Numbered from the stretch's first letter, positions 3,992 through 53,090 are shown. The stretch: 59,163 bases of DNA from Minisyncoccota bacterium (GCA_036517395.1 DATDWN010000001.1:1-59163); one strand, 5' to 3'. Numbers and translations: made by a program. Notes: generated by a model not told the origin, from the sequence alone.

Positions 3992-5050
3992 ATGGAGAAT
4001 TTAAGCCCCAGAGAACAGAAAATACTGGATATCTTGTCAAAGCAGGATAAAGCTCAGTCTTCAGATATTCATGCATTATTAAAACTTTTGGATGAAGATT
4101 TGTCTCTTGTGACCGTCAAAAGAGTCTTATCACGACTTCAATCATTGGGGGTTATTATTGTAAACGGTTCTGGCCGATCAACCTCATATACCATAACCAC
4201 ATACGGCAGACTAGTTTCAAATATTGATGCTCACTTATACTGTCTCAACGAGCCAGACAGGCGTCACGGTAGAAGTGGATATAATTTTTCACTTTTTGAA
4301 ACACTAAGTTTTAATCCACTTACAATAGACGAAGAAAAGGTCTTGGATATGGCCACAAAAAAATATCATGTCCGCACAAAAGATCTCTCGACTACAATAC
4401 AAGAAAAAGAGTTGGAGCGTTTTATCATTGAACTTTCGTGGAAGTCTTCAAAAATCGAAGGTAATACATATACATTACTCGACACTGAAAAACTAATTCG
4501 AGAGGGGATTGAGGCCATGGGACACAGTAAAGATGAAGCTAAAATGATTCTAAACCATAAAGAAGCTTTCAAATTTATAAGAGAAAATTCATCTGAATTC
4601 AAAACATTAACCAAGAAAAACATAGAAGAAGTCCATAAAATTCTGGTCAAAGACCTAAATGTAGACTTTGGTTTGCGTAAAAAACCTGTCGGGGTAACAG
4701 GTTCGCTATACCGTCCACTTGATAACATTTACCAGATTTCCGAAGCAATGGAACAACTATCCAAAAGTATTTCTCGTATAAAAAATCCGTACACCCAAGC
4801 GCTTGTGGCACTCGTCGGTATTAGTTACATCCAACCATTTGAAGATGGGAACAAAAGAACAGCGCGACTTATGGCAAACGCTCTACTTTTAGCTCATAAA
4901 TGCGCCCCTCTTTCTTATAGGAGTGTAGACGAAAATGCCTATCGTGAATCAATGCTCGTGTTTTATGAATTAAACTCTCTTGTGCCATTTAAAAAAATAT
5001 TTATTGAACAATATGTTTTTTCTGCTGAAAATTACTTGGTAAAATCATAA
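3992..5050 (+). CDS. Fic/DOC family protein with N-terminal winged-HTH and degenerate Fic motif
   Basis: 352-aa ORF. Core reads QPFEDGNKRTAR where the canonical motif is HxFx(D/E)GNGRxxR. N-terminal HTH-like region (LSLVTVKRVLSRLQSLGVI). Confidence 0.8.
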   Translation: MENLSPREQKILDILSKQDKAQSSDIHALLKLLDEDLSLVTVKRVLSRLQSLGVIIVNGSGRSTSYTITTYGRLVSNIDAHLYCLNEPDRRHGRSGYNFSLFETLSFNPLTIDEEKVLDMATKKYHVRTKDLSTTIQEKELERFIIELSWKSSKIEGNTYTLLDTEKLIREGIEAMGHSKDEAKMILNHKEAFKFIRENSSEFKTLTKKNIEEVHKILVKDLNVDFGLRKKPVGVTGSLYRPLDNIYQISEAMEQLSKSISRIKNPYTQALVALVGISYIQPFEDGNKRTARLMANALLLAHKCAPLSYRSVDENAYRESMLVFYELNSLVPFKKIFIEQYVFSAENYLVKS

Positions 5051-5126
5051 TCAATAATTCTGTCATTGATAATTGTGAGCCATTGAGCTATGCAGTTGCA
5101 TTTAAAAAATACAGTATAATTTATTT

Positions 5127-5585
5127 ATGATTAAGAAAATTGTTTTGAAGTTAAAGAGTATAAGTTATTCTGGAAATTCAATAGGTGATGATATTAGGCT
5201 GGAAATTAATATTTTAGGAAAACCTTTTAGTCTGAAGAAAAAAATAAAAGTAGGTACAAAACAAGAGTTCGATAAAATAATTGGTGAATTTGATACTGAT
5301 AGAAAAACATTTTTTGAGGCAGAAAAATGGAAAGTGGGTATTTACGATATTGAAATTCCTGATGCGCCACATGAGGGCGGTATAAACTATACAAAAATAG
5401 CTAAGTTTGCCAAAGTTTGGTTTAGGGTGGGCCACAAAGACGCAAAATATCTCCACACAGGTATGCATTCGCTAGGTTGTATCACAGTTTTAGAACAAGA
5501 TAAATGGGACGAAATCTTTCATCAACTTATTAAGGCTCGCAAGGGTGATGGTTTAAGTGTGGGTGTCCTAGAAGTAGTTGATTAA
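5127..5585 (+). CDS. L,D-transpeptidase-fold protein (YkuD / Tlde1-DUF2778-like)
   Basis: 152-aa ORF. C-terminal LHTGMHSLGCITV matches the His...Ser-x-Gly-Cys catalytic signature of L,D-transpeptidase-like domains. No signal peptide. Confidence 0.6.
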   Translation: MIKKIVLKLKSISYSGNSIGDDIRLEINILGKPFSLKKKIKVGTKQEFDKIIGEFDTDRKTFFEAEKWKVGIYDIEIPDAPHEGGINYTKIAKFAKVWFRVGHKDAKYLHTGMHSLGCITVLEQDKWDEIFHQLIKARKGDGLSVGVLEVVD

Positions 5586-5587
5586 AT

Positions 5588-6106
5588 ATGACCAAAAAAC
5601 AAGCCGTAAAAATAATAATTATTCTTTGTTGCATAGTTTTTTTGCTTTTGGTGTGTTTTTATTTTTTTTCTAATCCGCGTTCTGTTAAATCATTTGGCCC
5701 ATTCAAGTTGGGCGATCAAGCGCCCATTGTATCGGAGAATGTACCAGAATATGAATTTATTTATAGTTTGAAATATAAATTTTATATATATGCCATGGAA
5801 AAGAATATGAGTTATTGTGCGTTAGAAGATTGTGGGATGAGCGGAACTTTCGTTAGTTGTATGGGGGGATGGCTTTCCGCCGATGGCTTAAGTGGTGACG
5901 GTGGTGCAAACGACTATGGTTTAGTGGAAGAAGAGGTCGTGGAAGGAAAATCATCCATTATTTTAGTCGCAGATAAAGACAAGAAGATTATAGGTATATA
6001 TCCAAATTATAGAGTGCAAAATATTCCTTATATTTTAAAGAACTATCGCGATGTATTTGAAAGATTTGATTCGTGTTATGAAATGGAAATGCCAACTAAG
6101 TGGTAA
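5588..6106 (+). CDS. Membrane-anchored protein of unknown function (possible partner of 5127..5585)
   Basis: 172-aa ORF starting 3 nt after the previous stop. N-terminal TM helix IIIILCCIVFLLLVCFYFF. Confidence 0.65.
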   Translation: MTKKQAVKIIIILCCIVFLLLVCFYFFSNPRSVKSFGPFKLGDQAPIVSENVPEYEFIYSLKYKFYIYAMEKNMSYCALEDCGMSGTFVSCMGGWLSADGLSGDGGANDYGLVEEEVVEGKSSIILVADKDKKIIGIYPNYRVQNIPYILKNYRDVFERFDSCYEMEMPTKW

Positions 6107-6284
6107 GTACCAAGTTTATTAAACTGTCATTTTTTAAACAAAAGAAAACCCCTAGCGAACTTGTCGCTGGGGGTTTTGGCGCGTGGGAAACGAAGGGGAG
6201 GACAAAAGTGGCGACCGTGACAGCTCCGACGAAGCAACCGAACGCAAACGACACCATCGCCACGATGATGAACCATGGAAACAT
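6096..6284 (-). CDS. Small hydrophobic peptide downstream of the hammerhead (tentative)
   Basis: SD AAAGGAG 7 nt upstream of ATG 6284. N-terminus MFPWFIIVAMVSFAFGCFVGAVTVATFVL is a TM helix. The reading frame runs through the terminator hairpin, so the true C-terminus is uncertain. Confidence 0.35.
   Translation of the reverse strand: MFPWFIIVAMVSFAFGCFVGAVTVATFVLPFVSHAPKPPATSSLGVFFCLKNDSLINLVLTT
6141..6177. terminator. Bidirectional intrinsic terminator
   Basis: 10-bp stem CCCCTAGCGA-ACTTG-TCGCTGGGGG (6149..6173) flanked by an A-rich run (6141..6148) and TTTT (6174..6177). Confidence 0.65.
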
Positions 6285-6344
6285 TTGACACTCCTTTGTT
6301 TAGGAACTTTATCCCGTAGTGAACTTCGCTCTACTACTGGGAAT

Positions 6345-6393
6345 CTGTTTCGTTCTTTCGAACTCATCAGGCAAAGTACACACTTTGCTACAG
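6345..6393 (-). ncRNA. Hammerhead ribozyme motif, type III topology
   Basis: Minus strand: CTGT-A | GCAAAGT-GTGT-ACTTTGC | CTGATGA | GTTC-GAAA-GAAC | GAAA-CAG. Complete catalytic core, GUA cleavage triplet (bond between 6389 and 6388). Stem III is only 4 bp. Confidence 0.7.
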
Positions 6394-6629
6394 TAAGAGT
6401 TTTTGTACGGACTCTTAAACCGTAGATACATAATTCCCAGTGTTGCATCATTTCTGGGTAGGAAATGCAAAAATTTTATCTTGCATATTCCTTCAGTTTT
6501 TGCGGTCTCGCCCTGCCTTATTGTTGAACTGGTGGCTAGCCAATTCTGATTTCGTGCAGGATCCCCGCTCACACTTTGTTTAGTGGGTTTTATTGTCTAG
6601 GAGTTGTCCTTCTCCACCAAGAGTCAAGC

Positions 6630-6944
6630 TTAGTCTCGTCCGGTTGTTATCGGGCCCGAAGGTCCCCTACTTACTGCCTGTGGAAGTTTGCAAACTACTC
6701 GGCCATTATCAACCACCTTACCAATAAGACTTCGGAGATTTTCAACCGCATCTTGTGGCAGTTCACGTTCTGCGATAATCTCTGCATCTCTACAGCTACC
6801 GTCACATGTTGTGATTACGCGACGGTCTACTATTGGTGGTGCATAGATCATGTTGACATGTATTCCATCAACACAGTAGTCCATTATTGCTCCTGATGGG
6901 ACAGGAACGTCTCTCGCTACCCTGAAGAGTCTCATTGTAGGCAT
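6630..6944 (-). CDS. Small Cys-containing protein of unknown function, first gene of the hammerhead transcription unit
   Basis: Strong SD AAGGAGG 7 nt upstream of ATG 6944 (the track's GTG at 6953 lies inside the SD region). 104 aa, MPTMRLFRVARDV... No family recognised. Confidence 0.6.
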   Translation of the reverse strand: MPTMRLFRVARDVPVPSGAIMDYCVDGIHVNMIYAPPIVDRRVITTCDGSCRDAEIIAERELPQDAVENLRSLIGKVVDNGRVVCKLPQAVSRGPSGPITTGRD

Positions 6945-7023
6945 CCTTTTCACCTCCTTTTTACCCTAAGAGCCATCAAAGGGCTTTGTGTACATGTGAG
7001 AGATTATCCCTCTTTCTGACATA

Positions 7024-7052
7024 AGATTAGCATGAATTATGACTAGTGTCAA
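7024..7052 (-). promoter_or_regulatory. Sigma70-like promoter of the 6.1-7.0 kb minus-strand unit
   Basis: Minus strand TTGACA (7052..7047), 17-nt spacer, TAATCT (7029..7024). Divergent from the TrmB-like gene. Confidence 0.5.
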
Positions 7053-7173
7053 AATAAATGACATAAAATTATTAACAATATCAAAAGACTATCATACTAT
7101 ATATGGCTAGTAACAAGGATAAAACAGACTACTTGCATAGTTTTTACTATTTGCTATAATACTGTCATCTAAA

Positions 7174-7959
7174 ATGACAACAGTAAAAACATCAAAAGAT
7201 CCACAGATTTCTGACTACCTAGTGAGGGTCATGACTAATGTTGGATTATCTAAAAATCAGGCTTGTGTATACTTGGCTTGTTTGAAACTAGGGAACGCAT
7301 CTATTTGGGATATTTCTGAAACTTCTGGGGTTAAAAGAACCACCTGTTATGTGGTTATAAATGATCTGGTATCCAAAGGCATAGCTAGTGTAGGTGGAGA
7401 TAGTAAGAAAGCTATGTATTCTGTCATCAGTCCAAATGAATTTATATTTAGTTTCAAAAACAAACAAAATCAACTAGTGGAGTCAGTCAGTGAACTAAAT
7501 GCTCTAATAAGTAAAACTTATTCCAGACCTCATCTCAGAATGTTTGAAGGGATTGATGGAGTAGAACAAGCTTATAAGCTGACTCTCAATATTTCCGAGG
7601 GAAATGAAATACTAATTTATGGAAATCCTGATGTTGTTATCAATTATCAAGGCATGATTGATAATTATTTGAGACAAAGGGTGAAAGATGGAATAAAAGT
7701 CAGAGCGATTCTGCCTGATACACTACTAGCTCGAGAAGTTATAGGGAAAGACAAGGAACAATTGAGAGAAACTCGACTCCTATCGAAAAATACTTTTGAC
7801 CAACAGACAGAAATAAATATTTTACCGGATTCAATCATTTACATCGCCCATTCGGAAAATAAACCATTTGCCACGGTTATAGAAAACTCCACTTTAGCCA
7901 GAGAAGAAAAGGGAAGGTTTGAGATTTTGTGGAGTATGGCAAAACTAGAAGATGTTTGA
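7174..7959 (+). CDS. TrmB-like transcriptional regulator
   Basis: 261-aa ORF. N-terminal winged HTH (LSKNQACVYLACLKLGNASIWDISETSGVKRTTCYVVINDLVSKGI). Paralogous to 17577..18338. Confidence 0.75.
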   Translation: MTTVKTSKDPQISDYLVRVMTNVGLSKNQACVYLACLKLGNASIWDISETSGVKRTTCYVVINDLVSKGIASVGGDSKKAMYSVISPNEFIFSFKNKQNQLVESVSELNALISKTYSRPHLRMFEGIDGVEQAYKLTLNISEGNEILIYGNPDVVINYQGMIDNYLRQRVKDGIKVRAILPDTLLAREVIGKDKEQLRETRLLSKNTFDQQTEINILPDSIIYIAHSENKPFATVIENSTLAREEKGRFEILWSMAKLEDV

Positions 7960-10507: not shown

Positions 10508-11446
10508 TTACTGATTTCTGTTGTGAAATTTCTTGTGTATATCGCGAAGGTGCTTATCCGTCACATGAGTATAAATCTGCGTCGTTATAATACTTGAATG
10601 ACCCAAAAGGGCCTGGACAGAGCGGATGTCTGCGCCGTTTGAAAGCAAGTCTGTGGCAAAAAGATGCCTTAGGGTGTGAGGAGTTACCCTTCTCGAAATG
10701 CCAGATTTGATAGCGTGCTCTTTTACGATTCTCTCGATTGATCTTTTGTTTATTGGCCCTACTGCTGTCATAGCTTGCACCTTGTGCCCTCGGTTTTCTA
10801 TCGGGAGTCTCACAAAAAGCGCATCACTCATATCTTTACGCACAGCCAAATAATCCCTGACGGCTTTCTTGGCTTCATCGGACAGAAAAACCACCCGCAC
10901 TTTGCCACCTTTGCCACGAATAGATAGCTCATCTGATTTTAGATTTATATCTGAAGTCAAAGAACATAGCTCGGAGAGGCGTAGACCGGTGGAAAATAAA
11001 AGTTCGAGGACGGCTTTATCGCGCAGATTTTTTATATCATTGCCTTTTGGAGAGTCAAGTAGACGCTGAAGTTCTGCGGGTGTTATTAAATCAAGAGATC
11101 TTTCTCCAACTTTTGCCAGTTCTATTCGTTCTGGTTGAAGAGATTTGATTTCCTGTCTGGCTAAATATTTTAGAAAGGCTCGAAGAGCGATGAGATAATA
11201 GTTTTGAGTTTTTTTGGAAAGAGTCTCCGATTTTAATTTGTTGTGTCCCGTCGGCTGTCGGTTAAGCCAGAGTCGAAACTCACGGACGGAGTCTGGGGTG
11301 ATTTTGGAAGGGTCGTCATTTTTTAAAAAGTCCAGAAATCGGCCGAGCTGGTGATTGTAATTTTCAATCGTTTTGAAAGAGCGGCCTTTTTCTATCTCGA
11401 TGTATTCTAGAAATTGACGCTTGAGTTTTGACAGAGATTGGGACAT
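10508..11446 (-). CDS. Tyrosine recombinase XerC/XerD family
   Basis: C-terminal catalytic residues in context (RLSEL...HTLRHLFAT...LLGHSSIITTQIYTHV). Start at MSQSLSKLK (11446) avoids overlap with the upstream gene. Confidence 0.85.
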   Translation of the reverse strand: MSQSLSKLKRQFLEYIEIEKGRSFKTIENYNHQLGRFLDFLKNDDPSKITPDSVREFRLWLNRQPTGHNKLKSETLSKKTQNYYLIALRAFLKYLARQEIKSLQPERIELAKVGERSLDLITPAELQRLLDSPKGNDIKNLRDKAVLELLFSTGLRLSELCSLTSDINLKSDELSIRGKGGKVRVVFLSDEAKKAVRDYLAVRKDMSDALFVRLPIENRGHKVQAMTAVGPINKRSIERIVKEHAIKSGISRRVTPHTLRHLFATDLLSNGADIRSVQALLGHSSIITTQIYTHVTDKHLRDIHKKFHNRNQ

Positions 11447-11447
11447 G

Positions 11448-12011
11448 CTATTTTTGTGGAGCAAAACCAATTTTATTTTTTGGTTTTTCTTTTTCTGTGA
11501 TTAACTGACGAATAGCGTCAAAAACAGCGCTGAACTGATGGTCATATTTCTTCTCTAAATCGTCCAACCTACGGGCAATATCTTTGTGCGATAGCATTAA
11601 TTGACGAATCCGAACAAAAACACGCATGATAGCAATGTTCACTTCGATTGCCTTGTTGCTGTTCAAAACACTGGAAAGCATGGCCACACCTTGTTCTGTA
11701 AAAACATATGGCAAGTAGCGTCTTCCACCGTAATCCAAACTTGAGGTCGCAATTTGCGACCTCAAGTTCAAGGTCACAAATCGTGATCTTGAAGAAATAA
11801 GATCCTCAGTTTCTTTTATACTAAGTTGAAACATAAAATCTTTTGGAAATCTTTTTTTATTTCTTTTGACCGCCTCGTTTAATCTTTTGGTTGATACTCC
11901 ATACAGTTTGGCCAAATCACTATCCAACATGACTTTATGCCCACGAATAAAATATATTTTTCTTTCGATAAATTCAGTCGGAACTAGGGATTTAGAATTG
12001 TTTTTTAGCAT
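11448..12011 (-). CDS. ORF6N (KilA-N-like) domain protein
   Basis: IERKIYFIRGHKVMLDSDLAKLYGVSTKRLNEAVKRNKKRFPKDFMFQL...GGRRYLPYVFTEQGVAMLSSVL. Paralog of 33836..34408. Confidence 0.8.
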   Translation of the reverse strand: MLKNNSKSLVPTEFIERKIYFIRGHKVMLDSDLAKLYGVSTKRLNEAVKRNKKRFPKDFMFQLSIKETEDLISSRSRFVTLNLRSQIATSSLDYGGRRYLPYVFTEQGVAMLSSVLNSNKAIEVNIAIMRVFVRIRQLMLSHKDIARRLDDLEKKYDHQFSAVFDAIRQLITEKEKPKNKIGFAPQK

Positions 12012-17576: not shown

Positions 17577-18338
17577 ATGATTGATAAATATCTAGAAGAT
17601 GCGGGGCTTTCGGATAAAGAAGTGGCCGTATATTTGCACCTAGTCCAGGTGGAACAGGCCTCTGTAGTCGAACTGGCTCAAAAAACCAAAATAAAAAGGC
17701 CGACTGTTTACACCATACTCGACTCACTTTCAAAAAAGGGTTTAGTTAGCGAAATAGAGTATGACAAAAAAACTAAATATCTAGCTGAACCACCAGAAAG
17801 GTTAAAAACATTTATTGAGAGAAAAGAAATGTCTCTAAACGAACTAAAGGATCGTTTCGTTAAAGATGTGATACCACAAATAAAAAGCCTACAGAGAGAG
17901 AGCGGAGAGAAACCAATAGTAAGATATTTCTCTGGCAAAGAGGGAATAGTTAGTTTGCAAAACAATATATACTCCGGATCCCCAGATGGTTCTCCAATTT
18001 ATATACTTTATCCAAAGGATCTTTTAGATGAATCATTCAAGGATGAAGAAACAGATAAGTACAAAAAAACAAGAACAGGTATAGGAATAAAAGCGAAAGT
18101 CCTCTATAACTGGACAAAGGGGGAGAAGCCATCAGACGAATTGGCTGAAAGAAAGAAGGTTGACGAAAAAAAATATCCATTCTTCGCCGATATAACAGTA
18201 TATAAAGACAAAGTCAGAATTAGTATTTTAGGTAAAAAATTATCTGGAATATATATTGAGAGTAAGGACTTTGCTGAAACGTTGAAAAGTCTTTTCAATC
18301 TAGCCTTTGATAATCTAAAAAATAATTCGGATAAATAA
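17577..18338 (+). CDS. TrmB-like transcriptional regulator
   Basis: LSDKEVAVYLHLVQVEQASVVELAQKTKIKRPTVYTILDSLSKKGLV winged HTH. Paralog of 7174..7959. Confidence 0.75.
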   Translation: MIDKYLEDAGLSDKEVAVYLHLVQVEQASVVELAQKTKIKRPTVYTILDSLSKKGLVSEIEYDKKTKYLAEPPERLKTFIERKEMSLNELKDRFVKDVIPQIKSLQRESGEKPIVRYFSGKEGIVSLQNNIYSGSPDGSPIYILYPKDLLDESFKDEETDKYKKTRTGIGIKAKVLYNWTKGEKPSDELAERKKVDEKKYPFFADITVYKDKVRISILGKKLSGIYIESKDFAETLKSLFNLAFDNLKNNSDK

Positions 18339-18344
18339 GTCGAG

Positions 18345-18626
18345 GCCCGACCGAGTGAGGAGAAGCGATTCCCCATCCCTCGGCCGAGCCCCTGTGTTGC
18401 GATTCACTTCCCACCCCTTCGGAAGGGAGTGAACCTACTAGTCGAGCATCTTGCTCTCTTTCTTCTGGCCCCCTCCTACGTGGGGCCAATGAGACGAAAC
18501 TACGACTCTATAGTGAACACATGACTTGTTTTGGTGGAACTTCTGTCCCGCCCCGATCTGCGCTCTCAAAGGCAGCAGTATTATCGGGGCGGTCAGGCCA
18601 CCTTAGTCATGCATGGACACCTCCTG
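18345..18626 (-). ncRNA. Unclassified GC-rich RNA convergent with the TrmB-like gene (tentative)
   Basis: Minus-strand promoter TTGACA (18660..18655), 16 nt, TATACT (18638..18633). Hairpins CCGCCCCGAT...ATCGGGGCGG and GGCCCC...GGGGCC. Only 3-5 codon ORFs follow the AGGAGG. No clear terminator. Confidence 0.35.
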
Positions 18627-18806: not shown

Positions 18807-18835
18807 TTGACAGAAAATACGAATAGGTATATACT
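18807..18835 (+). promoter_or_regulatory. Sigma70-like promoter of the 18.8-21.0 kb hammerhead unit
   Basis: TTGACA (18807..18812), 17-nt spacer, TATACT (18830..18835). Confidence 0.6.
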
Positions 18836-19273
18836 ATCTCCAGAATCAAAACATTGAAAGTCAGGACGGTTTGACAGATGTCTCAGCTTTTGCTTCCACT
18901 TAGGCGCCTGGATCGCACAAATTAGTTGCGAGAGGCCCTAGGCGGGAGCAAAAGCTTCCAACAAGACTATGTCACAGGTACAAATCCTGATTGGCGCTGG
19001 GATTGCTGTCCACTCGTTTGTGGATGGCGCCCGAGTGTCGCGGCCGAAGCTTCGGGAAACCGAAGTGGACGCCCTCGCCCATGCCCTGTGGCTTGAAAAC
19101 CACGGTCAGCAGAAGCGAGCTCTGAAGTATCTGGAAGAATATCTCCAGAGAAACAGAGGCAATACTTGCCACTTAGGTGGCGGCCGGGGTGTTATCGCAG
19201 TCCTGGGAACAGAAAATGCGTACGCGGTTGGTTAACCGAGAAACAAAAATAACCCAGTTGGCTTGCCAACTGT

Positions 19274-19326
19274 ATCTGTCGTCCGATGTGTGTCGGGCTT
19301 GATGAGTTCAAAAGAACGAAACAGAT
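19274..19326 (+). ncRNA. Hammerhead ribozyme motif, type III, variant core
   Basis: ATCTGT-C | GTCCGA-TGTGTG-TCGGGC | TTGATGA | GTTC-AAAA-GAAC | GAAA-CAGAT. Same architecture as the other two copies, but position C3 reads U (or CUUGAUGA with an extra U). Confidence 0.55.
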
Positions 19327-20072
19327 GTTCCTTAAAATTTTGAAAAATAACTTCGTGGCCATGTTACTGAATCTCAACTTTTTAGATTCAGTAACATGGC
19401 CATGGAGAGCCAGATAGTCCAGCGATGGACGATTCGTCTCGGACAGCACGACCGAGGCGGGGTTGTATCGAAAGATATAATCCAAATCTCCACATATGTG
19501 GTTAAGAGGAGGGTCTACCAAACCCGAGGCCTCTCAGCCACATATGTTCGTAGCGTTTGGCGATGCTACGAAAGTTAGAAGACGAAACAGGCCCGAGGAA
19601 GTGACTGTCCGAAGGGTTTCTGATGAAAGTCAGAAGTGTGCCAACACCTGTTAGTTGGAAAGTCAGTGGCTAGGCTTAGGGACCGCAAGTCTCTTTGCTA
19701 AAGCCTCCCCCATTACTGACACAGTGCGGTCGCAAATTTGCAAAAATTTGCGAAGGCAAAGTTGGGGGGAAACCAAGAGCGTAGAGCCAGACCTCATCGT
19801 ACAGAGGGAGAGTGGATTAAGCCCCACTCATGCGTGAAACCCCGGCCAGGGTGAATCGCAATAAGCTCTTGGTGGATATGGTGGGCAACCGGCCGTCCCA
19901 AAAGGACACAGGTTGTGGTTAAAAGAGTAGAACCGATCGCAAATCGGTGGTTGGAGCTCGGGGTCACCTGGGCGCAATCTACTCTGGAGGCAAAATTGAC
20001 CTTGTTTGCTTCCACCTTGTTCTTTCTTCAGGCAATAAATAAATTTGTCTGAACGTCGCCAGAACGCATCTG

Positions 20073-20127
20073 GTACTGTCGTCTGATGTGTATCAGACCT
20101 GATGAGTTCGAAAGAACGAAACAGTAC
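20073..20127 (+). ncRNA. Hammerhead ribozyme motif, type III, canonical core
   Basis: GTACTGT-C | GTCTGAT-GTGT-ATCAGAC | CTGATGA | GTTC-GAAA-GAAC | GAAA-CAGTAC. 7-bp stem III, GUC triplet (cleavage after C20080), GNRA-capped stem II. Confidence 0.8.
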
Positions 20128-20220
20128 AAGGTTTGTGTTTATTAGGGATTTCCTTAAAAGTAAATTATTTTGATAGTTTTCTTTTAAGGGAAATTCTTCC
20201 CTAGTTCTTTGAGGACACAC

Positions 20221-20619
20221 ATGACCAAAGTGACGATGGTTCTTCTCTTGGCGGCGTCGGCTCTCTTCGGCGGCTGCGACAAGCTCCTCGTGGTGCCCGT
20301 CCGCGCCTACTGCGACCGAGAGGTTTCGTACACTCTCTGGAAGCAGGAGGGAAGGGCCTACCGGCTCCACCTCAACGTCGGCGCGGTGGACGAACGGGTG
20401 TGCATCGGAAATCTCGATGTCTCCCGCGAGATCAACTTGTCGCAAGATGTTTCCTCACCCGAGGAAGCGGACAAGCTCGTCGAGAAGTATCGGCGTCTTT
20501 ACGCCGAGAAACTCGCCGCTCGGCGTCCCACCATGAAGCTGGAGCTTCCCAAGCTCCCAGCCAAGAGGCCTGCGACACCCCAGTCGCAGAACCAGTGTCC
20601 AAAACCCGATCCGAAATGA
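20221..20619 (+). CDS. GC-rich putative lipoprotein
   Basis: SD GAGGA 6 nt upstream of ATG 20221. Signal peptide with lipobox MTKVTMVLLLAASALFGG-C. Lys/Pro-rich C-terminus. 93 nt downstream of the hammerhead. Confidence 0.65.
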   Translation: MTKVTMVLLLAASALFGGCDKLLVVPVRAYCDREVSYTLWKQEGRAYRLHLNVGAVDERVCIGNLDVSREINLSQDVSSPEEADKLVEKYRRLYAEKLAARRPTMKLELPKLPAKRPATPQSQNQCPKPDPK

Positions 20620-21015
20620 TCGGGTTCCCACCAGAGATTTTTTGAAAAAGAAATTTGTGGTGGGAAGGTGCGAACCTAGGAAAACCCAAGTAAGCGTCAT
20701 CGTAGAGCAACGACCTGTGCCCATGTGGCCGGATAGCCTACACACGCCGAAAGGTTAGTACTTTGTTGGAGCTCAAAGAGCAGATGCTCGCCTTCCCTTC
20801 AAATTCGTTGTCCAGGCCGGTGCAGCGGTCCGAGGACTCGAGAGGTGAAATTTGCCACCTTAGTAAGTGATGCCTCCCACTACTCCAAAAAAGTAGAAGG
20901 TGGATGGTCAGTAGAGATACTGACAATCGGGTTTAATGCGAGTGGCTTAAATCGTTTTCCAAGGAGGTGGCCACGCTCGCTAAAATAAAACCTGAACTGC
21001 ACATGTTCCTTCCCG

Positions 21016-25407: not shown

Positions 25408-27053
25408 TGATCAAAAAGATCTTAGAGGAAATAGAGAATCAGAAAATGACTATAAGTCAGTGGGTGCTTGGTTTCAGTGGTATACTTTTTGTTCGTTTTC
25501 TGTTTGAATCTCTTTCAAGTCCCACGAGTACGGGCATTATTCCTTCGGATCCTTATACATTAGTTCATTACGGACTTTTTTTCCTTTCTATTATTTTGGT
25601 TACGGCGTGTATTATTGGATTTATAACCAAAAATTACGAGGCGGGTGTGAAAGTAATTCTTTTTGGTTTGCCCGTTATTTGGCTTGCTCCTATCATTGAT
25701 ATTTTATTGAGCAGAGGTCTGGGGTACAAAATGACTTATATTTTCGATACGCATGGCAAACTGCTTTTTGATTTTCTGACATTTTTTGGCTCCAACCTAA
25801 CACACGGAGCGACATACGGTATTCGAGTAGAAATAATTCTCATTCTTGCGGGTGTTGGTTGGTATTTATGGTTGAAAACAAAAAATATATCCAAGACTTT
25901 GCTTGGGGTAATAGCCACTTATGTTTTAGGATTTGTAATGGCAAGTTTACCTGGAATTTTGTATACATTTTCTCATTTTCATGCGGGGACTACGATAGAT
26001 GTTCTAAAGTTTTTTGAGAATACAGTCAACGGGTCAAACATATTTCACAATACGCTTCATGATGGAAACCTTTCGGTATCAGCATCCAGATTTTTTGAGT
26101 TGGGATTTGATAAATTGATGTCTCAAATACTTTTTATTATTTCTTTTTTCTTTGGAGCATTACTTCTTTGGAAAATCGATAGCAAAAAATTTAGAGCTGT
26201 AATCGGGAATATTCGTTTGGAGCGCATATCTTCGTATATTGTTCTACTTCTCTGTGGGGCAGGATTCGCTTATATAAACAGACTAAGTGGTGAGTTAATT
26301 TGGGCAGATTTACTGGGACTTTTGTGCCTCATAATTTCTTGGGTTTCCCTGTGGATGCAGGCCGTGCACACAAATGACGTAAGCGATGTAAAAATAGACG
26401 AAATATCAAACACAGATAGACCCCTAATAAAAAAAGAATTAAATGAAAATGATATGCGACAGACAGGTTTTCTCTGGCTTGCTATCGCTCTTCTGGGCTC
26501 GTGGTCCGCTGGATTTTATCCATTTTTTATGGCTCTAGTTTTCGTTGCAACTTCATATATATATTCATCTTACCCACTACGCCTCCGAAGATTTCCTATA
26601 ATTCCATCATTTCTAATAGGCGTAGCCTCTCTCGCCACCATATTAGCTGGATTCTTTTTTATTTCGGCTCACAAAGAAATCGGAAATTTTCCAATGCTCC
26701 TCGCTGTGGGAATAGTGATCATGGTCACTCTTGCTATAAACGTCAAAGATATGAGAGATATAGAGGGGGATAGAGCTGATGGAATACTGACTCTGCCTGT
26801 GCTTTTTGGCCAAAACGGGGCGAAAATAGTGGGGCTATGTTTGGCTCTAAGTTTTCTTCTTGTGCCGATTTTTCTATCTTTCTATGCTTTATATATCTTT
26901 TCCATACCAGCGGCGATTATCGGCTATAAGCTAGTTACAAAAAAACCATATACAGAAAAACCTCTTTTTATTTTACGTTTTGTTTTTTTGGCTTGTGTTG
27001 CATTTTCTTACCTCGGTGTGTATTGGTTAGCACATTTGTACGGTGTGATATAA
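25404..27053 (+). CDS. Polytopic membrane protein with C-terminal UbiA-family prenyltransferase domain
   Basis: NDVSDVKIDEISNTDRP (NDxxDxxxD) and DMRDIEGDRADGILTLP motifs. Many TM helices. Confidence 0.75.
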   Translation: MMIKKILEEIENQKMTISQWVLGFSGILFVRFLFESLSSPTSTGIIPSDPYTLVHYGLFFLSIILVTACIIGFITKNYEAGVKVILFGLPVIWLAPIIDILLSRGLGYKMTYIFDTHGKLLFDFLTFFGSNLTHGATYGIRVEIILILAGVGWYLWLKTKNISKTLLGVIATYVLGFVMASLPGILYTFSHFHAGTTIDVLKFFENTVNGSNIFHNTLHDGNLSVSASRFFELGFDKLMSQILFIISFFFGALLLWKIDSKKFRAVIGNIRLERISSYIVLLLCGAGFAYINRLSGELIWADLLGLLCLIISWVSLWMQAVHTNDVSDVKIDEISNTDRPLIKKELNENDMRQTGFLWLAIALLGSWSAGFYPFFMALVFVATSYIYSSYPLRLRRFPIIPSFLIGVASLATILAGFFFISAHKEIGNFPMLLAVGIVIMVTLAINVKDMRDIEGDRADGILTLPVLFGQNGAKIVGLCLALSFLLVPIFLSFYALYIFSIPAAIIGYKLVTKKPYTEKPLFILRFVFLACVAFSYLGVYWLAHLYGVI

Positions 27054-27056
27054 TTA

Positions 27057-27192
27057 ATCCGCACACCAACTCTGGCATAGTTGCATAGTGTTTTTATTAA
27101 ATACACTACTTGATACAAAATTATCGAGATCAATGTTTTATAGAAATTCTTAACATGCAACAAAAACACAATGCCAGAGTTGGTGTACGGAT
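27057..27192 (+). repeat. Family B hairpin element ending just before a start codon (copy 1)
   Basis: Terminal inverted repeats ATCCGCACACCAACTCTGGCAT... / ...ATGCCAGAGTTGGTGTACGGAT. ATG of 27195 is 2 nt downstream. Confidence 0.75.
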
Positions 27193-27194
27193 AA

Positions 27195-28028
27195 ATGCCA
27201 AGTAATAAAATTCTAACAATACTGATCATTTGTTTTGGAATCGTAGTGGCAATTTACCTATTTGAGAAAACCCCGAAACAAATTTCTCAAAACAATACAT
27301 CTCCCTCGCAAAATATAGATGTGGGAAGTGTAAATTCTATTGAAAACACCAGCAATGATGATTGGAAAAAAATACTGGTCTCGATTGGTCAGAGCAGTAC
27401 AACTGTTTTGACAAACCAAAACCCAGAAGTTTTCGACGGCACCACCATAACATCCCAAGTGGCAAAAGATTTTTTCTCTCAATATTTGCTCGCAAAGGGA
27501 GGTGGTGGAACCGTGACGGTAGATATGGCAAATAAAATCAGTGATAGCGTCCTATCAAATACGAACTACACCCAAATAAATGGACCGATTTACATAGCGG
27601 AAAACCTCCATATAAAACAAGAGGAAAATCTAGACATAATAAAAAGTTACAAAACAACTCTCAATCTAATCTTGAAAACTAGGTCAACCCAAGTTACAGA
27701 CAGCCCTGTAACGGCTATAAACAAAGCAACCAAGGCGGGCGGACAAGATGCTCTTCTGCGACTAGACTCTACTATTTCCATAGCCAAGGGCCTAGTTTCC
27801 GATCTTTTGCAGATGAACGTTCCAAAAAGCGCCGTTTCCGCACACCTCGCCCTTCTCAACGCCACAAGTGATGTTGTCTCTGACTTGGAAGCCATGCGAG
27901 TGGCATTTACGGACCCCATCAGGGGTCTTGCTGGTATAGGTCAATACAACAGCGACATGATCAAATTTCAAAACGCACTGATTGAAGTGAATAAATACTT
28001 GGCCCAGAAAACAGGCTCAAACATATAA
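27195..28028 (+). CDS. Membrane-anchored protein, first gene of the T4SS-like cluster
   Basis: 277-aa ORF, N-terminal TM ILTILIICFGIVVAIYLF. Confidence 0.7.
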   Translation: MPSNKILTILIICFGIVVAIYLFEKTPKQISQNNTSPSQNIDVGSVNSIENTSNDDWKKILVSIGQSSTTVLTNQNPEVFDGTTITSQVAKDFFSQYLLAKGGGGTVTVDMANKISDSVLSNTNYTQINGPIYIAENLHIKQEENLDIIKSYKTTLNLILKTRSTQVTDSPVTAINKATKAGGQDALLRLDSTISIAKGLVSDLLQMNVPKSAVSAHLALLNATSDVVSDLEAMRVAFTDPIRGLAGIGQYNSDMIKFQNALIEVNKYLAQKTGSNI

Positions 28029-33087: not shown

Positions 33088-33834
33088 ATGGATACAGAAA
33101 CACTAAACAAAATGCCTGATTATGTGAAGAACTTGCCGAAAGCCGTGCAGGATTTGATTTTTGATGGTGTTTGGGAGGAAAGAACAGCAGAAATTGCCAA
33201 GAAATATTCTCTTAGTGACACCCAAGCAGATTCACTAATAAATACAGTGCTTTTGGTTATGATTGGACTAGAGGATCCTGATACATTCCTAGAAACTATC
33301 ATCGCCGACCTCGGAATTTCTCGACTTCTTGCTGAACAGATAAATGAGGATTTAGAAACTAGGGTTTTTGAGTATGCGCTACGAACAGTAGAGAAGAAAG
33401 AGGAAATAATGTCAAAATCCAAACCTCAAATTTCTAATGAAGTTCATGGTTTACCTATGTCGGACATAGGGAGAAAAAAACCAGAACCCTTCCAAATTAT
33501 GGCAAGGACTCCCCTTGGCACAGAACCCAAGGTGCCTGAAATCAAACCCGAAATTTTGCCTATGATAGAGGAGGACCCGCCTTCGCAGGGCTTCAGCCCG
33601 CTACGCCAAAGCGAGAGCGAGACGAGCGAGGCAAGGGGAGAAAAAGTTCACATAAATAGACCTGAAGCAGTCCAGAGACCGGTTGAAGTTCCAAGATTTA
33701 CAGGGGCGCCAATAGAAGAAGAGAAATCAACTATTCCAGTCAATCTACCGACAGCTCCAGAGCCACTAAAACCGGAACCAGTTAAAATAGATCACAAATA
33801 TGTGGTGGATCCGTACAGGGAAAACATTGAGTAA
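33088..33834 (+). CDS. Hypothetical protein carrying an in-frame REP palindrome
   Basis: 248-aa ORF. Codons for GLPMSDIGR are the 17-bp palindrome at 33454..33470. Confidence 0.65.
   Translation: MDTETLNKMPDYVKNLPKAVQDLIFDGVWEERTAEIAKKYSLSDTQADSLINTVLLVMIGLEDPDTFLETIIADLGISRLLAEQINEDLETRVFEYALRTVEKKEEIMSKSKPQISNEVHGLPMSDIGRKKPEPFQIMARTPLGTEPKVPEIKPEILPMIEEDPPSQGFSPLRQSESETSEARGEKVHINRPEAVQRPVEVPRFTGAPIEEEKSTIPVNLPTAPEPLKPEPVKIDHKYVVDPYRENIE
33454..33470. repeat. REP-like palindrome CCTATGTC-G-GACATAGG (copy a, intragenic)
   Basis: Perfect 8+1+8 palindrome, the same as the copies flanking the RAYT-like gene. Confidence 0.85.
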
Positions 33835-33835
33835 T

Positions 33836-34408
33836 ATGAAACAGAAAAAAATGCCCACAAAAGTAGTTTCCATCCCGGTCGAAATTATAGAGCGACGAAT
33901 TTATCTAGTTCGTGGACAAAAAGTTATGCTTGATAGTGACTTGGCAGACTTGTACCAAGTTCTTACAAAAAACCTAAACAAGACAGTTCGAAGGAATCTT
34001 GATCGTTTTCCAAAAGATTTTATGTTTCAATTAAACAAGGAAGAAGTCACGAACTTGAGGTTCCAATTTGGAACCTCAAGTTCAAGGTCGCAATTTGAGA
34101 CCTTGAACAATACCTATGGTGGTCGTCGTTACTTACCCCATGTCTTCACAGAACATGGTGTCGCCATGTTATCTTCTGTGCTAAATAGCAAGCGAGCCGT
34201 GCAAATGAATATTTTAATAATTCGCGCTTTTGTAAAATTAAGAGAAATGCTAGCAAACAATAAAGAGCTGGCTGGTCGTATAGAGAAAATAGAAAATACC
34301 CAGAAAAAACATGGGTCAGTTATAAACTTACTTGCTTCAGAAATTGATAAACTAAAAATTCCACCACCATTAAAAAAGAAGGAACAAATCGGTTTTAAAC
34401 CAAAATAA
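33836..34408 (+). CDS. ORF6N (KilA-N-like) domain protein
   Basis: IERRIYLVRGQKVMLDSDLADLYQVLTKNLNKTVRRNLDRFPKDFMFQL...GGRRYLPHVFTEHGVAMLSSVL. Start at MKQKK directly after the previous stop. Confidence 0.8.
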   Translation: MKQKKMPTKVVSIPVEIIERRIYLVRGQKVMLDSDLADLYQVLTKNLNKTVRRNLDRFPKDFMFQLNKEEVTNLRFQFGTSSSRSQFETLNNTYGGRRYLPHVFTEHGVAMLSSVLNSKRAVQMNILIIRAFVKLREMLANNKELAGRIEKIENTQKKHGSVINLLASEIDKLKIPPPLKKKEQIGFKPK

Positions 34409-34420
34409 TAATAAAAGGCC

Positions 34421-34855
34421 ATGCGCTACCAAGTACCACAATTTATAGAAATAGAGGACAAGGTCATAGGGCCTTTAACCATAAAGCAGTTTATATACCT
34501 CGTTGGTGGAGCGGGAATGTCTTTCATCATGTACTCCTATCTGCCTATTTATATATCCCTAATACTGATAGTTGTTATTATTCCACTATCACTTGCTTTG
34601 GCTTTTTATAAAATAAACAATAAACCATTTATTGACTTTCTCGAATCGGCTTTTCTTTTCTATACCAAAAAAAATCTCTACATTTGGAAAAAAGAACCCA
34701 AAGAAATAGTAAAGAAAGATGTGGCGACACCGGCAAATACAGAGGTCTATGTGCCAAGACTTTCTGACAGCAAACTAAAGGAGCTGTCATGGACGCTGGA
34801 TATAAATGAGAATTTAAATCCACTGACGGGGAACGATGGAAAGAATACGAAGTAA
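34421..34855 (+). CDS. PrgI-family (VirB3-like) T4SS membrane protein
   Basis: MRYQVPQFIEIEDKVIGPLTIKQFIYLVGGAGMSFIMY followed by a second TM helix. Typical of the PrgI family in Gram-positive-type T4SS. Confidence 0.7.
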   Translation: MRYQVPQFIEIEDKVIGPLTIKQFIYLVGGAGMSFIMYSYLPIYISLILIVVIIPLSLALAFYKINNKPFIDFLESAFLFYTKKNLYIWKKEPKEIVKKDVATPANTEVYVPRLSDSKLKELSWTLDINENLNPLTGNDGKNTK

Positions 34856-34961
34856 TTTTCAGTTTTCAATTTTACAATTTTCAATCAATGTTTCAATTTA
34901 CAATTTTGAAAATTAATTCATTGTAAATTCAATGAAAATTGAGAATTGTAAATTGAAAATT
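34854..34961. repeat. Family A palindromic intergenic element (copy 3)
   Basis: AATTTTCAGTTTTCAATTTTACAATTTTCAATC...GAAAATTGAGAATTGTAAATTGAAAATT. Confidence 0.75.
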
Positions 34962-34977
34962 ATGTTATAATTATTCC

Positions 34978-35616
34978 ATGCCCGTCTCATCCAAAGCCAC
35001 ACAAGAGTTCGTTCCGATAAAAGAAGTGCGTGACGGCATTGTTGTTTTGAAAGATGGCTCTATGCGAGGTGTTGTTTTGGCATCGTCTCTTAACTTTTCT
35101 CTTAAATCCGAGGATGAACGCAACGCCATCATCCTGCAGTTTCAGGATTTTCTAAACTCTTTGGATTTTTCTATACAAATATGCATCCAGTCTAGAAGGC
35201 TAGATATACGGCCGTATATAGCCCTGCTAGAGGATAGGTATAAAGAGCAGATAAATGATCTTATGAAAATACAAACTCAGGAATACATAGAGTTCATACG
35301 CAAATTTACCGAGACAACAAACATAATGACAAAAAGTTTTTTCATTATCGTTTCCTACGATCCGGCAATGATAAACATAAAAAGCGGAGGCGTGGCTGGG
35401 TTTTTCAAAAAGAAATCAGCGGGAGAGGAGCTACAGGCAAAACAAGCGGGGTTTGAAGAAAACAGAACCCAGTTGGAACAAAGGGTTTCTGTGGTCGAGC
35501 AGGGATTGTCCAGATGCGGAATACGGGTCATACGTCTGGGAACAGAGGAGGTCATAGAGCTGTTCTACAAAATATTTAATCCTGGGGATGCTGAGAAGCC
35601 GATAAAGCTAAGTTGA
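34978..35616 (+). CDS. T4SS-associated protein resembling a stand-alone VirB4 N-terminal domain
   Basis: 212-aa ORF. VPIKEVRDGIVVLKDGSMRGVVLASSLNFSLKSEDERNAIILQFQDFLNSL parallels the N-terminal region of conjugative VirB4/TraE-type ATPases and of the next large ORF. No Walker motifs. Confidence 0.5.
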   Translation: MPVSSKATQEFVPIKEVRDGIVVLKDGSMRGVVLASSLNFSLKSEDERNAIILQFQDFLNSLDFSIQICIQSRRLDIRPYIALLEDRYKEQINDLMKIQTQEYIEFIRKFTETTNIMTKSFFIIVSYDPAMINIKSGGVAGFFKKKSAGEELQAKQAGFEENRTQLEQRVSVVEQGLSRCGIRVIRLGTEEVIELFYKIFNPGDAEKPIKLS

Positions 35617-35648
35617 AAGTGTGAAAGTAGAAAGTGTGAAAGTGAGGA
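35612..35648. repeat. Family C (GTGTGAAAGT) repeat, left arm around the four-helix-bundle gene
   Basis: GTTGAAAGTGTGAAAGTAGAAAGTGTGAAAGTGAGG. Complementary to 36027..36063. Confidence 0.75.
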
Positions 35649-35677
35649 GATAAAAATAGAAAGTTGAAAGTAATGCA

Positions 35678-36028
35678 ATGAAAATAGAAAAATTTGAAGA
35701 TATGCAAACATGGCAAAAAAGTAAGGGTTTAGCGATAGAGATATACCAGTGTTTTAAATCTTGTAGAGATTTTAGCTTCAGAGATCAAATTCAAAGAGCA
35801 ACAATAAGCATCTCCAACAACATCGCAGAAGGCTTTGAAAGATTAGGAAATAAAGAATTTAGAAAGTTTTTATACATTTCAAAAGGCTCATGTGGTGAGG
35901 TTAGATCAATGTTATACTTAAGTTTAGACTTTAAATATATCTCTCAGAAAGATTTTGACAGACTTAACTTTTCAACGACAGAAATCTCAAAGATGTTAGC
36001 TGGTTTTATTAAAAAGATGGTTATTTAA
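35678..36028 (+). CDS. Four-helix-bundle protein (23S rRNA intervening-sequence protein family)
   Basis: 116-aa ORF. W..S..L...IY......F....F..QI.RA..SI..NIAEG pattern (QIQRATISISNNIAEGFERLGNKEFRKFLYISKGSCGEV). Confidence 0.8.
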   Translation: MKIEKFEDMQTWQKSKGLAIEIYQCFKSCRDFSFRDQIQRATISISNNIAEGFERLGNKEFRKFLYISKGSCGEVRSMLYLSLDFKYISQKDFDRLNFSTTEISKMLAGFIKKMVI

Positions 36029-36063
36029 CTTTCACACTTTTAACTTTTTTCTTTCACACTACA
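36027..36063. repeat. Family C repeat, right arm
   Basis: AACTTTCACACTTTTAACTTTTTTCTTTCACACTACA, ending 1 nt before the VirB4 ATG. Confidence 0.75.
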
Positions 36064-52722: not shown

Positions 52723-52732
52723 TTTATTTTTT

Positions 52733-52866
52733 ATCCGCACACCAACTTCTGTCTCGTTGCCCTGTCTCAGAGTTTAGTTGTACATCTCTATTTTAGAGAT
52801 AAAAACTAACTTCGCAAAGCTTTCAATGTCGCAACACAGAGACAAGACAGAAGTTAGTGTGCGGAT
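52733..52866 (-). repeat. Family B hairpin element (copy 3)
   Basis: ATCCGCACACCAACTTCTGTCT... / ...AGACAGAAGTTAGTGTGCGGAT. On the minus strand it ends GTGTGCGGATAAAAAATAAA-ATG. Confidence 0.75.
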
Positions 52867-53090
52867 GAATATTTTATTAATCATTACTCGGCATATTTGT
52901 ATCAAATTGTATATTTTTTGCAAACATCTTATCCAACTCAATTTGTGGATAACTTTTTATCTGCGACGAGAGAGGAGCGCGTGAATGTGTAATCACATTC
53001 ACAGCGTCCGAACGAGGAGTAGCAATGGTAAAAACCCCGCCCCTCTGGGGCGGAACAGGGGTCCAGGACTTGCCCTGGGGTTTCATACCA

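Follow-up and report, generated by a model that had tools for sequence, protein, structure and literature searches.

The 59,163-nucleotide (nt) stretch of DNA from a Minisyncoccota bacterium analyzed here (GCA_036517395.1, DATDWN010000001.1:1-59163, in full hereafter the window) harbors, at positions 19327-20072 of the plus strand, a conserved structured non-coding RNA of ca. 745 nt and about 30 helices, free of open reading frames (ORFs) and called RNA B below, which is bracketed on the same strand by two type III hammerhead ribozymes, HH1 (19272-19328) and HH2 (20072-20128). The reading that we favor, and consider probable, is that the hammerheads punctuate the transcript and would release RNA B as a discrete, mainly linear, stable ornate RNA that acts in trans. 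Cleavage itself, release in linear form, protection of the ends, action in trans and control by an adjacent TrmB-family protein are what we infer.

The catalytic core of type III hammerheads consists of CUGANGA linking stems I and II, GAAA linking stems II and III, and a cleavage triplet of the form NUH. This core is found in the hammerheads of the window, the triplet being GUC in HH1, GUC in HH2 (20078-20080) and GUA in a third family member, HH3 (6341-6397, minus strand). The core is complete in HH2, a canonical type III hammerhead (CUGAUGA...GAAA), and in HH3; in HH1 it reads UUGAUGA (C3 to U) and is otherwise intact. Predicted cleavage falls after C19280 and after C20080, which places the two scissile bonds 800 nt apart as read from the sequence. 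The Rfam model Hammerhead_3 (RF00008) gives 44.9 bits to HH2 (20073-20127; E=1.3e-6 over the whole window) and 24.9 bits to HH1 (19274-19326), the latter value being low because core position C3 is a U. A family-specific covariance model, R1, retrieves exactly three copies in the window, with 72.5, 77.8 and 73.3 bits for HH1, HH2 and HH3, respectively, and the 24-mer CTGATGAGTTCRAAAGAACGAAAC occurs three times in the window with at most one mismatch, compared to no occurrence in 100 shuffles. Folded locally, both HH1 and HH2 adopt the three-way junction of a hammerhead as their minimum-energy structure, with a stem III of 7 base pairs (bp) in HH1; the two share a 49-nt repeat of 88% identity, and there is no other repeat. 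A first-pass annotation of the window, made from its sequence alone, had described this plus-strand pair with the same sites and distance, and Rfam, the covariance model and direct reading all agree with it: both hammerheads are real family members, but the core of HH1 is non-canonical at C3. The third copy that the annotation mentioned also exists, with its 4-bp stem III, but on the minus strand and not on the same strand as the pair.

The family was aligned using 30 distinct members from the window and related loci, the latter referred to by L numbers. Stem I is paired in 100% of cases, with 6/6 pairs covarying, and stem II in 99%, while the four inner pairs of stem III are always formed and show little variation, and helix III is open. 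Two-sided changes affect 15 of the 17 family pairs, as against 4-7 when the partners are slid. Because of this covariation, the three model matches in the window and local minimum-energy folds that are hammerhead junctions, the comparative evidence indicates that the hammerheads are real and evolutionarily maintained.

The stretch 19281-20080 (plus strand) is the 800-nt RNA predicted to be excised if both hammerheads cleave. Hammerhead cleavage leaves a 5'-OH and a 2',3'-cyclic phosphate, and from this established behavior the ends of the product can be predicted. The hammerhead-bounded interior has a GC content of 0.49-0.51 (ca. 0.51 over 19001-21000), compared to ca. 0.39 for the window, and its plus strand folds with a minimum free energy of -330 kcal/mol (z=-14.4), which is 53 kcal/mol better than the -277 kcal/mol of the minus strand; the RNA B core, 19327-20072, reaches z=-16.9. 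The interior is thus as GC-rich and as structured as had been noticed at first sight, and the earlier remark that it holds no ORF with a Shine-Dalgarno or a recognizable product also stands: no ORF is conserved among homologs. A protein-coding interior was rejected since the stop-free stretches differ from homolog to homolog.

Homologous loci, which the first-pass annotation had suggested seeking in other Patescibacteria, were reached by tracing the flanking genes, which led to syntenic loci with a TrmB-family gene followed by 1-2.5 kb without called genes. RNA B was found in four further lineages, with identities to the window of 85.6% (L031/L037), 83.8% (L024, also L025, L026, L032 and L036), 80.6% (L020) and 70.9% (L030). 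A metagenome scan with a conserved RNA B motif gave four true loci, corresponding to two lineages, one of them new; three other motif matches (L033-L035) were discarded as chance matches in GC-rich coding DNA. The structure was derived with RNAalifold from an alignment of five sequences, one for each lineage including the window, and consists of 214 pairs in about 30 helices. Standard pairs fill 94.8% of the alignment cells, compared to 34-46% when the pairing partners are slid, and two-sided, i.e. compensatory, changes are seen in 64 of the 214 pairs, compared to 4-12 in the slid controls; none of 500 shuffles reached the observed values. Several invariant G-U pairs are compatible only with the plus strand, GNRA-type loops are many and invariant stretches are long. 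At the nucleotide level RNA B shows 74-84% identity, whereas the surrounding protein genes mostly show 66-76%, hence it appears to be under strong purifying selection. Taken together, the alignment data argue that RNA B is a genuine structured non-coding RNA encoded on the plus strand.

A hammerhead lies directly 5' of RNA B in all five lineages and directly 3' of it in four of them (the window, L024, L031 and L020); in L030 neither a 3' hammerhead nor any other known ribozyme was detected with the R1 model and an Rfam scan. The distance between cleavage sites, 800 nt in the window, is 806, 789 and 780 nt in the homologous loci. Hence, the exact spacing highlighted by the first-pass annotation holds in the window but is not conserved, and with values from 780 to 806 among lineages the round figure has no special meaning and is, on this comparison, a coincidence.

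The order of elements in the window is promoter, leader, small ORF, HH1, 24-bp hairpin, RNA B, HH2, 5' untranslated region (UTR) and lipoprotein gene. The putative promoter (18807-18835, plus strand) is of the sigma-70 type, TTGACA-17-TATACT, with 11 of 12 consensus matches, and the region around it aligns with L020, L024, L037 and L038. The small ORF (18969-19235, plus strand), upstream of HH1, encodes 88 amino acids with a conserved core of ca. 68, and tblastn gives 69% amino acid identity to L030 and 64% to L038 with conservative substitutions; its 3' part overlaps an element conserved at the RNA level that is also found in L020 and L024. Directly 3' of HH1 a 24-bp hairpin (19351-19408, plus strand; -39.5 kcal/mol, z=-12.3) shows compensatory changes in L020 and L024, and in L030 its sequence is wholly different with the pairing kept. 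L038 has this hairpin as well, although what follows it there is a protein ORF and not RNA B; it therefore probably belongs to the hammerhead module, as a 5' protective stem. As read from the sequence, every hammerhead is flanked by a short hairpin on its 5' side and a stable hairpin on its 3' side; the fragments would therefore have structured ends, which may protect them. Downstream of HH2, the UTR (20129-20220, plus strand) contains two hairpins and a GAGGA ribosome-binding site and is 82-89% identical to the UTRs of L020, L023 and L024, and the following cistron (20221-20619, plus strand) encodes a predicted lipoprotein of 132 amino acids, with a signal peptide ending in LFGGC, for which homologs of 46-57% identity are found in L020, L022, L023 and L041 and no Pfam match was obtained. 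Immediately upstream of the RNA locus lies the gene of a TrmB-family winged-helix regulator of 253 amino acids (17577-18338, plus strand; Pfam TrmB, E=1.9e-14), whose orthologs, of 73-87% identity, precede the same locus in L020, L024, L030 and L038; it is likely the transcriptional regulator of the locus.

From these elements we propose the following sequence of events. The strong promoter at ca. 18807-18835 would drive a single plus-strand transcript comprising the small ORF, HH1, RNA B, HH2 and the lipoprotein mRNA, its activity being likely controlled by the adjacent TrmB-family protein. HH2, and HH1 as far as its U3 allows, would cut this precursor co-transcriptionally, and RNA B would thereby be freed from the adjoining mRNAs as a discrete and mainly linear RNA that would start with a hammerhead remnant and the 24-bp hairpin and terminate in a small hairpin with a 2',3'-cyclic phosphate. 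The released RNA would act in trans, most likely as a protein-binding or self-assembling scaffold or as a catalytic RNA, roles that are proposed here as for other large ornate bacterial RNAs.

The same arrangement, with RNA B upstream of the lipoprotein gene on one transcript, could also be that of a cis-acting leader or sensor, i.e. a giant riboswitch-like element or an attenuator controlling the lipoprotein gene, and in L030 RNA B indeed precedes an ORF directly, with no ribozyme in between. In four lineages, however, a hammerhead severs RNA B from the downstream gene, a structured module of ca. 350 nt (module C, see below) intervenes in L020, L024 and L031, and the downstream gene varies between lineages; moreover, 745 nt and about 30 helices far exceed the known cis regulators. 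We regard a role in cis as quite improbable.

The GC-rich, ORF-free stretch that separates the TrmB gene from the hammerhead operon (18338-18626, minus strand) was noted in passing. It has a sigma-70-like promoter on the minus strand (TTGACA-16-TATACT, 18660-18633) and a terminator-like hairpin (18352-18338). Its conservation extends to L038 (3270-3630), and no Rfam family matches; the stretch is a candidate for a small RNA of ca. 285 nt transcribed divergently from the hammerhead operon.

Several observations weigh against release of RNA B by its two hammerheads as a trans-acting linear RNA. The Rfam scores of HH1 and HH2 both fall below the gathering score of 48.5, a shortfall due to the short stem II and its loop and, in HH1, also to C3U. 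A C3-to-U change in the hammerhead core is expected to slow cleavage markedly, judging from published hammerhead mutagenesis, and HH1 is probably impaired by it, so that in this genome HH1 may not be what forms the 5' end of RNA B. The structure of RNA B rests on only five distinct sequences, and several of its predicted long-range helices are invariant. RNA B is missing from the same locus in the close relatives L038, L027 and L041, which makes it an accessory cargo whose function cannot be inferred from its context. Finally, the evidence presented here does not distinguish a linear from a circular product.

The C3-to-U change in HH1 leads to a doubtful but serious alternative, in which only HH2 cleaves and RNA B stays fused to the mRNA of the small ORF, as the giant structured 3' region of an RNA of ca. 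1.24 kb that runs from the promoter to C20080. U3 is fixed in all the independent population assemblies that cover HH1 (L010-L013 and L015), whereas core position 3 is a C in every orthologous 5' hammerhead, namely those of L038 (a canonical CUGAUGA), L024, L031, L030 and L020. The intact stem pairing of HH1 suggests that the change is recent or tolerated. On the other hand, the remainder of HH1 is perfectly maintained, conserved loops included, and in a natural hammerhead stabilized by tertiary contacts part of the activity may survive through a U3-G8 wobble; cellular RNases could also trim the RNA down to the structured 5' hairpin. Release at both ends, by HH1 as far as its U3 allows, is the reading that we retain.

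The first-pass annotation went further and suggested that the excised fragment may be circularized. In this scenario cleavage at both sites would be followed by closure of the 800-nt product, either through RtcB or through reversal of the hammerhead reaction at a junction hammerhead whose stem III is weak (4 bp), and the circle would persist as a stable ornate RNA. The chemistry is established, since 5'-OH and 2',3'-cyclic phosphate ends are the substrates both of RtcB and of hammerhead self-ligation. The CUGUC at the 3' end can pair with the ACAG of the HH1 remnant, in a cross stem that has 4 bp in the window, 4 bp in L024 and 5 bp in L031. The four lineages with a 3' hammerhead also share one and the same 3' tail, CUGGUACUGUC, beyond what their own stem III partners need. 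What speaks against circularization is, first, that L030 retains RNA B and the 5' hammerhead without any 3' ribozyme, and second, that the rebuilt stem III, which does have the 4 bp foreseen for the window, shrinks to 1 bp in L020 and hence is not a conserved feature. To this are added the slow cleavage expected from C3U in HH1, the lack of RtcB among the genes of the 59-kb window, and the fact that the same hammerheads mostly flank ordinary ORFs, where circularization would be senseless. We hold the circle to be unlikely and do not follow the annotation on this point. In its fullest form, which we hold to be just as unlikely, this view makes RNA B the founder of a new class of large ornate Patescibacteria RNAs, matured by flanking hammerheads and end-joined, through the reverse hammerhead reaction or RtcB, wherever both ribozymes are present. 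If true, this would give a chromosomally encoded circular structured RNA, and bacteria would have their first described case of a circular non-coding RNA made by ribozymes. A 7-bp helix that could close the excised RNA (20066-20072 with 19321-19327) was set aside as specific to the window and not conserved in the homologs.

The Rfam scan that the first-pass annotation called for did not assign RNA B to GOLLD, ROOL, HEARO, raiA or any other family. RNA B had no match in the window at gathering thresholds, over 19000-20400 at E<=10 or in the L020 homolog at E<=5; with the upstream 1 kb and five related loci also scanned, at gathering and permissive thresholds, the searches returned hammerheads and tRNAs only, plus chance miRNA-like matches on long hairpins. 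The covariance models of GOLLD, ROOL, OLE, HEARO, raiA, RNase P, tmRNA and group I/II introns gave no match. An RNase P-like reading, considered for the motif GGAAAGUC, was rejected on the lack of an Rfam RNase P match, and also because RNA B is roughly two times as large and close relatives do not have it at this locus. RNA B resembles GOLLD, ROOL, OLE, HEARO and raiA in its size of several hundred nt, its dozens of helices, its GNRA-type loops, its invariant stretches, its strong covariation and its accessory distribution. It differs from them in showing no similarity to their Rfam models (E<=10, permissive filters), in not lying beside tRNAs, phage genes or IscB, in its narrow range within groundwater Patescibacteria, and in being bracketed by self-cleaving ribozymes. 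Another case of a ribozyme that delimits a structured RNA is that of the minimal HDV-like 'theta' ribozymes of phages, which adjoin tRNAs and set the border at which a structured non-coding RNA stops inside a longer transcript; they differ from the present system in the ribozyme class, in the cargo (a tRNA versus a 745-nt RNA) and in the location (phage versus chromosome).

Non-coding units bounded by hammerheads are the organization of retrozymes and viroid-like RNAs (PMC6765202), and RNA B shares with these a position between same-strand type III hammerheads and ends that can be ligated. One could therefore see an integrated mobile RNA element in it, retrozyme-like or viroid-like and bounded by its own hammerheads; its GC content above the genome average and the coming and going of modules B, C and X among relatives would agree. 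The locus is, however, chromosomal, single-copy and syntenic, and its 3' hammerhead is dispensable in one lineage. No further copies of the interior were found in the window; the same syntenic position is occupied in five lineages and the divergence tracks that of the neighboring genes. The only repeats are the 49-nt ones, with neither long terminal repeats nor multiple copies, so that the marks of retrozymes and Penelope-like elements are missing as far as they were sought, which did not include target-site duplications, the primer-binding site or the polypurine tract. Among the Pfam-scanned ORFs of the window there is no reverse transcriptase. Chromosomal DNA with hammerheads on only one strand at the locus does not fit a replicon of the viroid, satellite or Obelisk type, and in phage and plasmid collections 19250-20150 had no BLASTN match, just as no viral contig contained the RNA B motif. 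Mobility of this kind is thus very hard to credit.

RNA B is not a general companion of the hammerhead family, since no homology to it was found with nhmmer and blastn in the first nine hammerhead loci, from Saccharibacteria and Paceibacteria. A 26-mer hammerhead pattern identified these nine loci in genomes of the candidate phyla radiation (CPR), eight of them labeled Saccharibacteria or Paceibacteria, and the identical 26-mer occurs in 34 predicted viral contigs of IMG/VR (L043-L076), in same-strand arrays of up to four; same-strand arrays are seen in CPR loci too. The family is hence common to CPR chromosomes and phages. Most of the 45 inter-hammerhead segments are occupied by one or more ORFs, the longest ORF covering at least half of the segment in 31 of them, and the products encoded in phage contigs include gamma-glutamyl cyclotransferase-like and Kyanoviridae Gp96-like proteins. 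ORF-poor segments (longest ORF below 30%) include those of RNA B, segment X of L020 and one segment of L006. Because the same family mostly separates ordinary protein cistrons, the hammerheads seem to serve the punctuation of transcripts in general and not to be a device dedicated to circularization.

This agrees with the intercistronic type III hammerheads described before (RF00008, PMC6765202), for which the processing of polycistronic transcripts has been proposed and a role is not established. The likeness extends to the canonical core, the three helices with helix III open, the GUC or GUA site, the intercistronic position on a single strand, frequently with several copies in one operon, and the presence of the same sequence family in phage contigs beside phage auxiliary genes. 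The hammerheads of the window likewise lie between co-oriented cistrons, and arrays occur at other loci; the difference is that the unit between two of them is here a structured RNA of ca. 745 nt and not a protein gene. HH3 is a plain intercistronic case, located between a 104-amino acid ORF and a 62-amino acid membrane ORF in a second hammerhead operon (6096-7050, minus strand) composed of a promoter, the 104-amino acid ORF (6944-6630), HH3 (6397-6341), the membrane ORF (6284-6096) and a terminator. A second TrmB-family paralog (7174-7959, plus strand) is divergent from this operon. Indeed, a TrmB-family regulator of ca. 250 amino acids lies 0.5-1.5 kb upstream of hammerhead arrays on the same strand, or divergent from them, in at least 10 loci, among them both loci of the window, L005, L006, L007, L009, L020, L024, L030, L037 and L038, an association that spans Saccharibacteria and Paceibacteria and that we did not find in the literature searched for CPR genomes.

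Two side observations concern the surroundings of these hammerheads. A CCA-adding enzyme with an HD domain is encoded near hammerhead loci in the window (1029-2552), L007, L009 and L024. In L007, from Saccharibacteria, a hammerhead (5890-5946) lies directly upstream of a Ro60/TROVE plus vWA gene (6013-7668) and is preceded by a strongly structured, ORF-poor RNA of ca. 650 nt that contains an internal repeat, in a segment within 4718-7668; the fold of the whole inter-hammerhead segment has z=-11.4. The structured RNA could possibly provide Y-RNA-like partners of the Ro60/TROVE protein.

With respect to what lies between the hammerheads, the relatives differ. RNA B is restricted to a narrow group of groundwater Patescibacteria, and L038, the closest relative by TrmB identity (87%), has the same hammerhead and long hairpin followed by a protein ORF and not by RNA B. 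L020 carries an extra ORF-poor segment, X, between two hammerheads. Module C, of ca. 350 nt, is present in L020 (9570-9920), L023, L024, L031, L027 and L041 and absent from the window; it shows compensatory changes in 29 of 78 predicted pairs, had no Rfam match in its L020 version, and, in the sample of relatives, is more widely spread than RNA B. Exchange of cargo seems to take place at the unit formed by hammerhead and hairpin, and such units may border exchangeable cassettes (RNAs B, C and X and small protein genes) in TrmB-controlled CPR operons.

Type III hammerheads, their intercistronic place in bacteria and phages, and large ornate bacterial RNAs are already known. What appears to be new is the RNA B family itself, the fact that self-cleaving ribozymes bracket it in a bacterial chromosome, and the repeated association of TrmB-family genes with hammerhead arrays in CPR. 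Full-text literature searches returned no paper on RNA B, and none that reports hammerheads from the candidate phyla radiation, Saccharibacteria and Patescibacteria included; those that combined hammerheads with GOLLD or ROOL did not bring up this system either; the first-pass annotation had likewise known of no such chromosomal system in CPR bacteria. Most genome-encoded bacterial hammerheads lack a known role, polycistronic processing being the only one proposed (PMC6765202), and the present locus would be a concrete case where it is plain what cleavage is for, since it would set a functional RNA free from its neighbors. RNA B also adds a large structured RNA family to the candidate phyla radiation, with strong covariation from five sequences, and RNAs of such size and conservation have repeatedly proved to have unusual architectures or activities. 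The TrmB-adjoining hammerhead arrays, together with the Ro60/TROVE locus, hint at a wider theme of RNA processing in reduced genomes.

As for the genomic setting, the gene content of the 59-kb window is that of a cellular chromosome and not of a phage, with genes for DnaA, DnaN, ComM, UvrD, KsgA, TyrRS, YidC and the CCA-adding enzyme, a class A penicillin-binding protein with transglycosylase and transpeptidase domains, toxin-antitoxin pairs and a single tRNA (ARAGORN). Several Rifle aquifer samples yielded identical copies of the window, assembled independently with the same flanks, and the relatives of the locus carry the label Patescibacteria. A tyrosine recombinase gene (10508-11470) adjoins MazF and a gene of the endo/exonuclease-phosphatase family, and the region 33800-37881 contains PrgI-like and TraG/VirB4-like ATPase genes of the type IV secretion or conjugation type, together with an ORF6N-domain protein and a 23S rRNA intervening-sequence protein. 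A final point of notice are two long imperfect hairpins of ca. 140 nt (27053-27196, minus strand, and 52729-52870, plus strand), which were reported only as chance matches to miRNA models and have near-identical termini, UUUAUCCGYACACCAAC...GUGUGCGGAU; they may be copies of a small inverted-repeat element resembling a miniature inverted-repeat transposable element (MITE-like).

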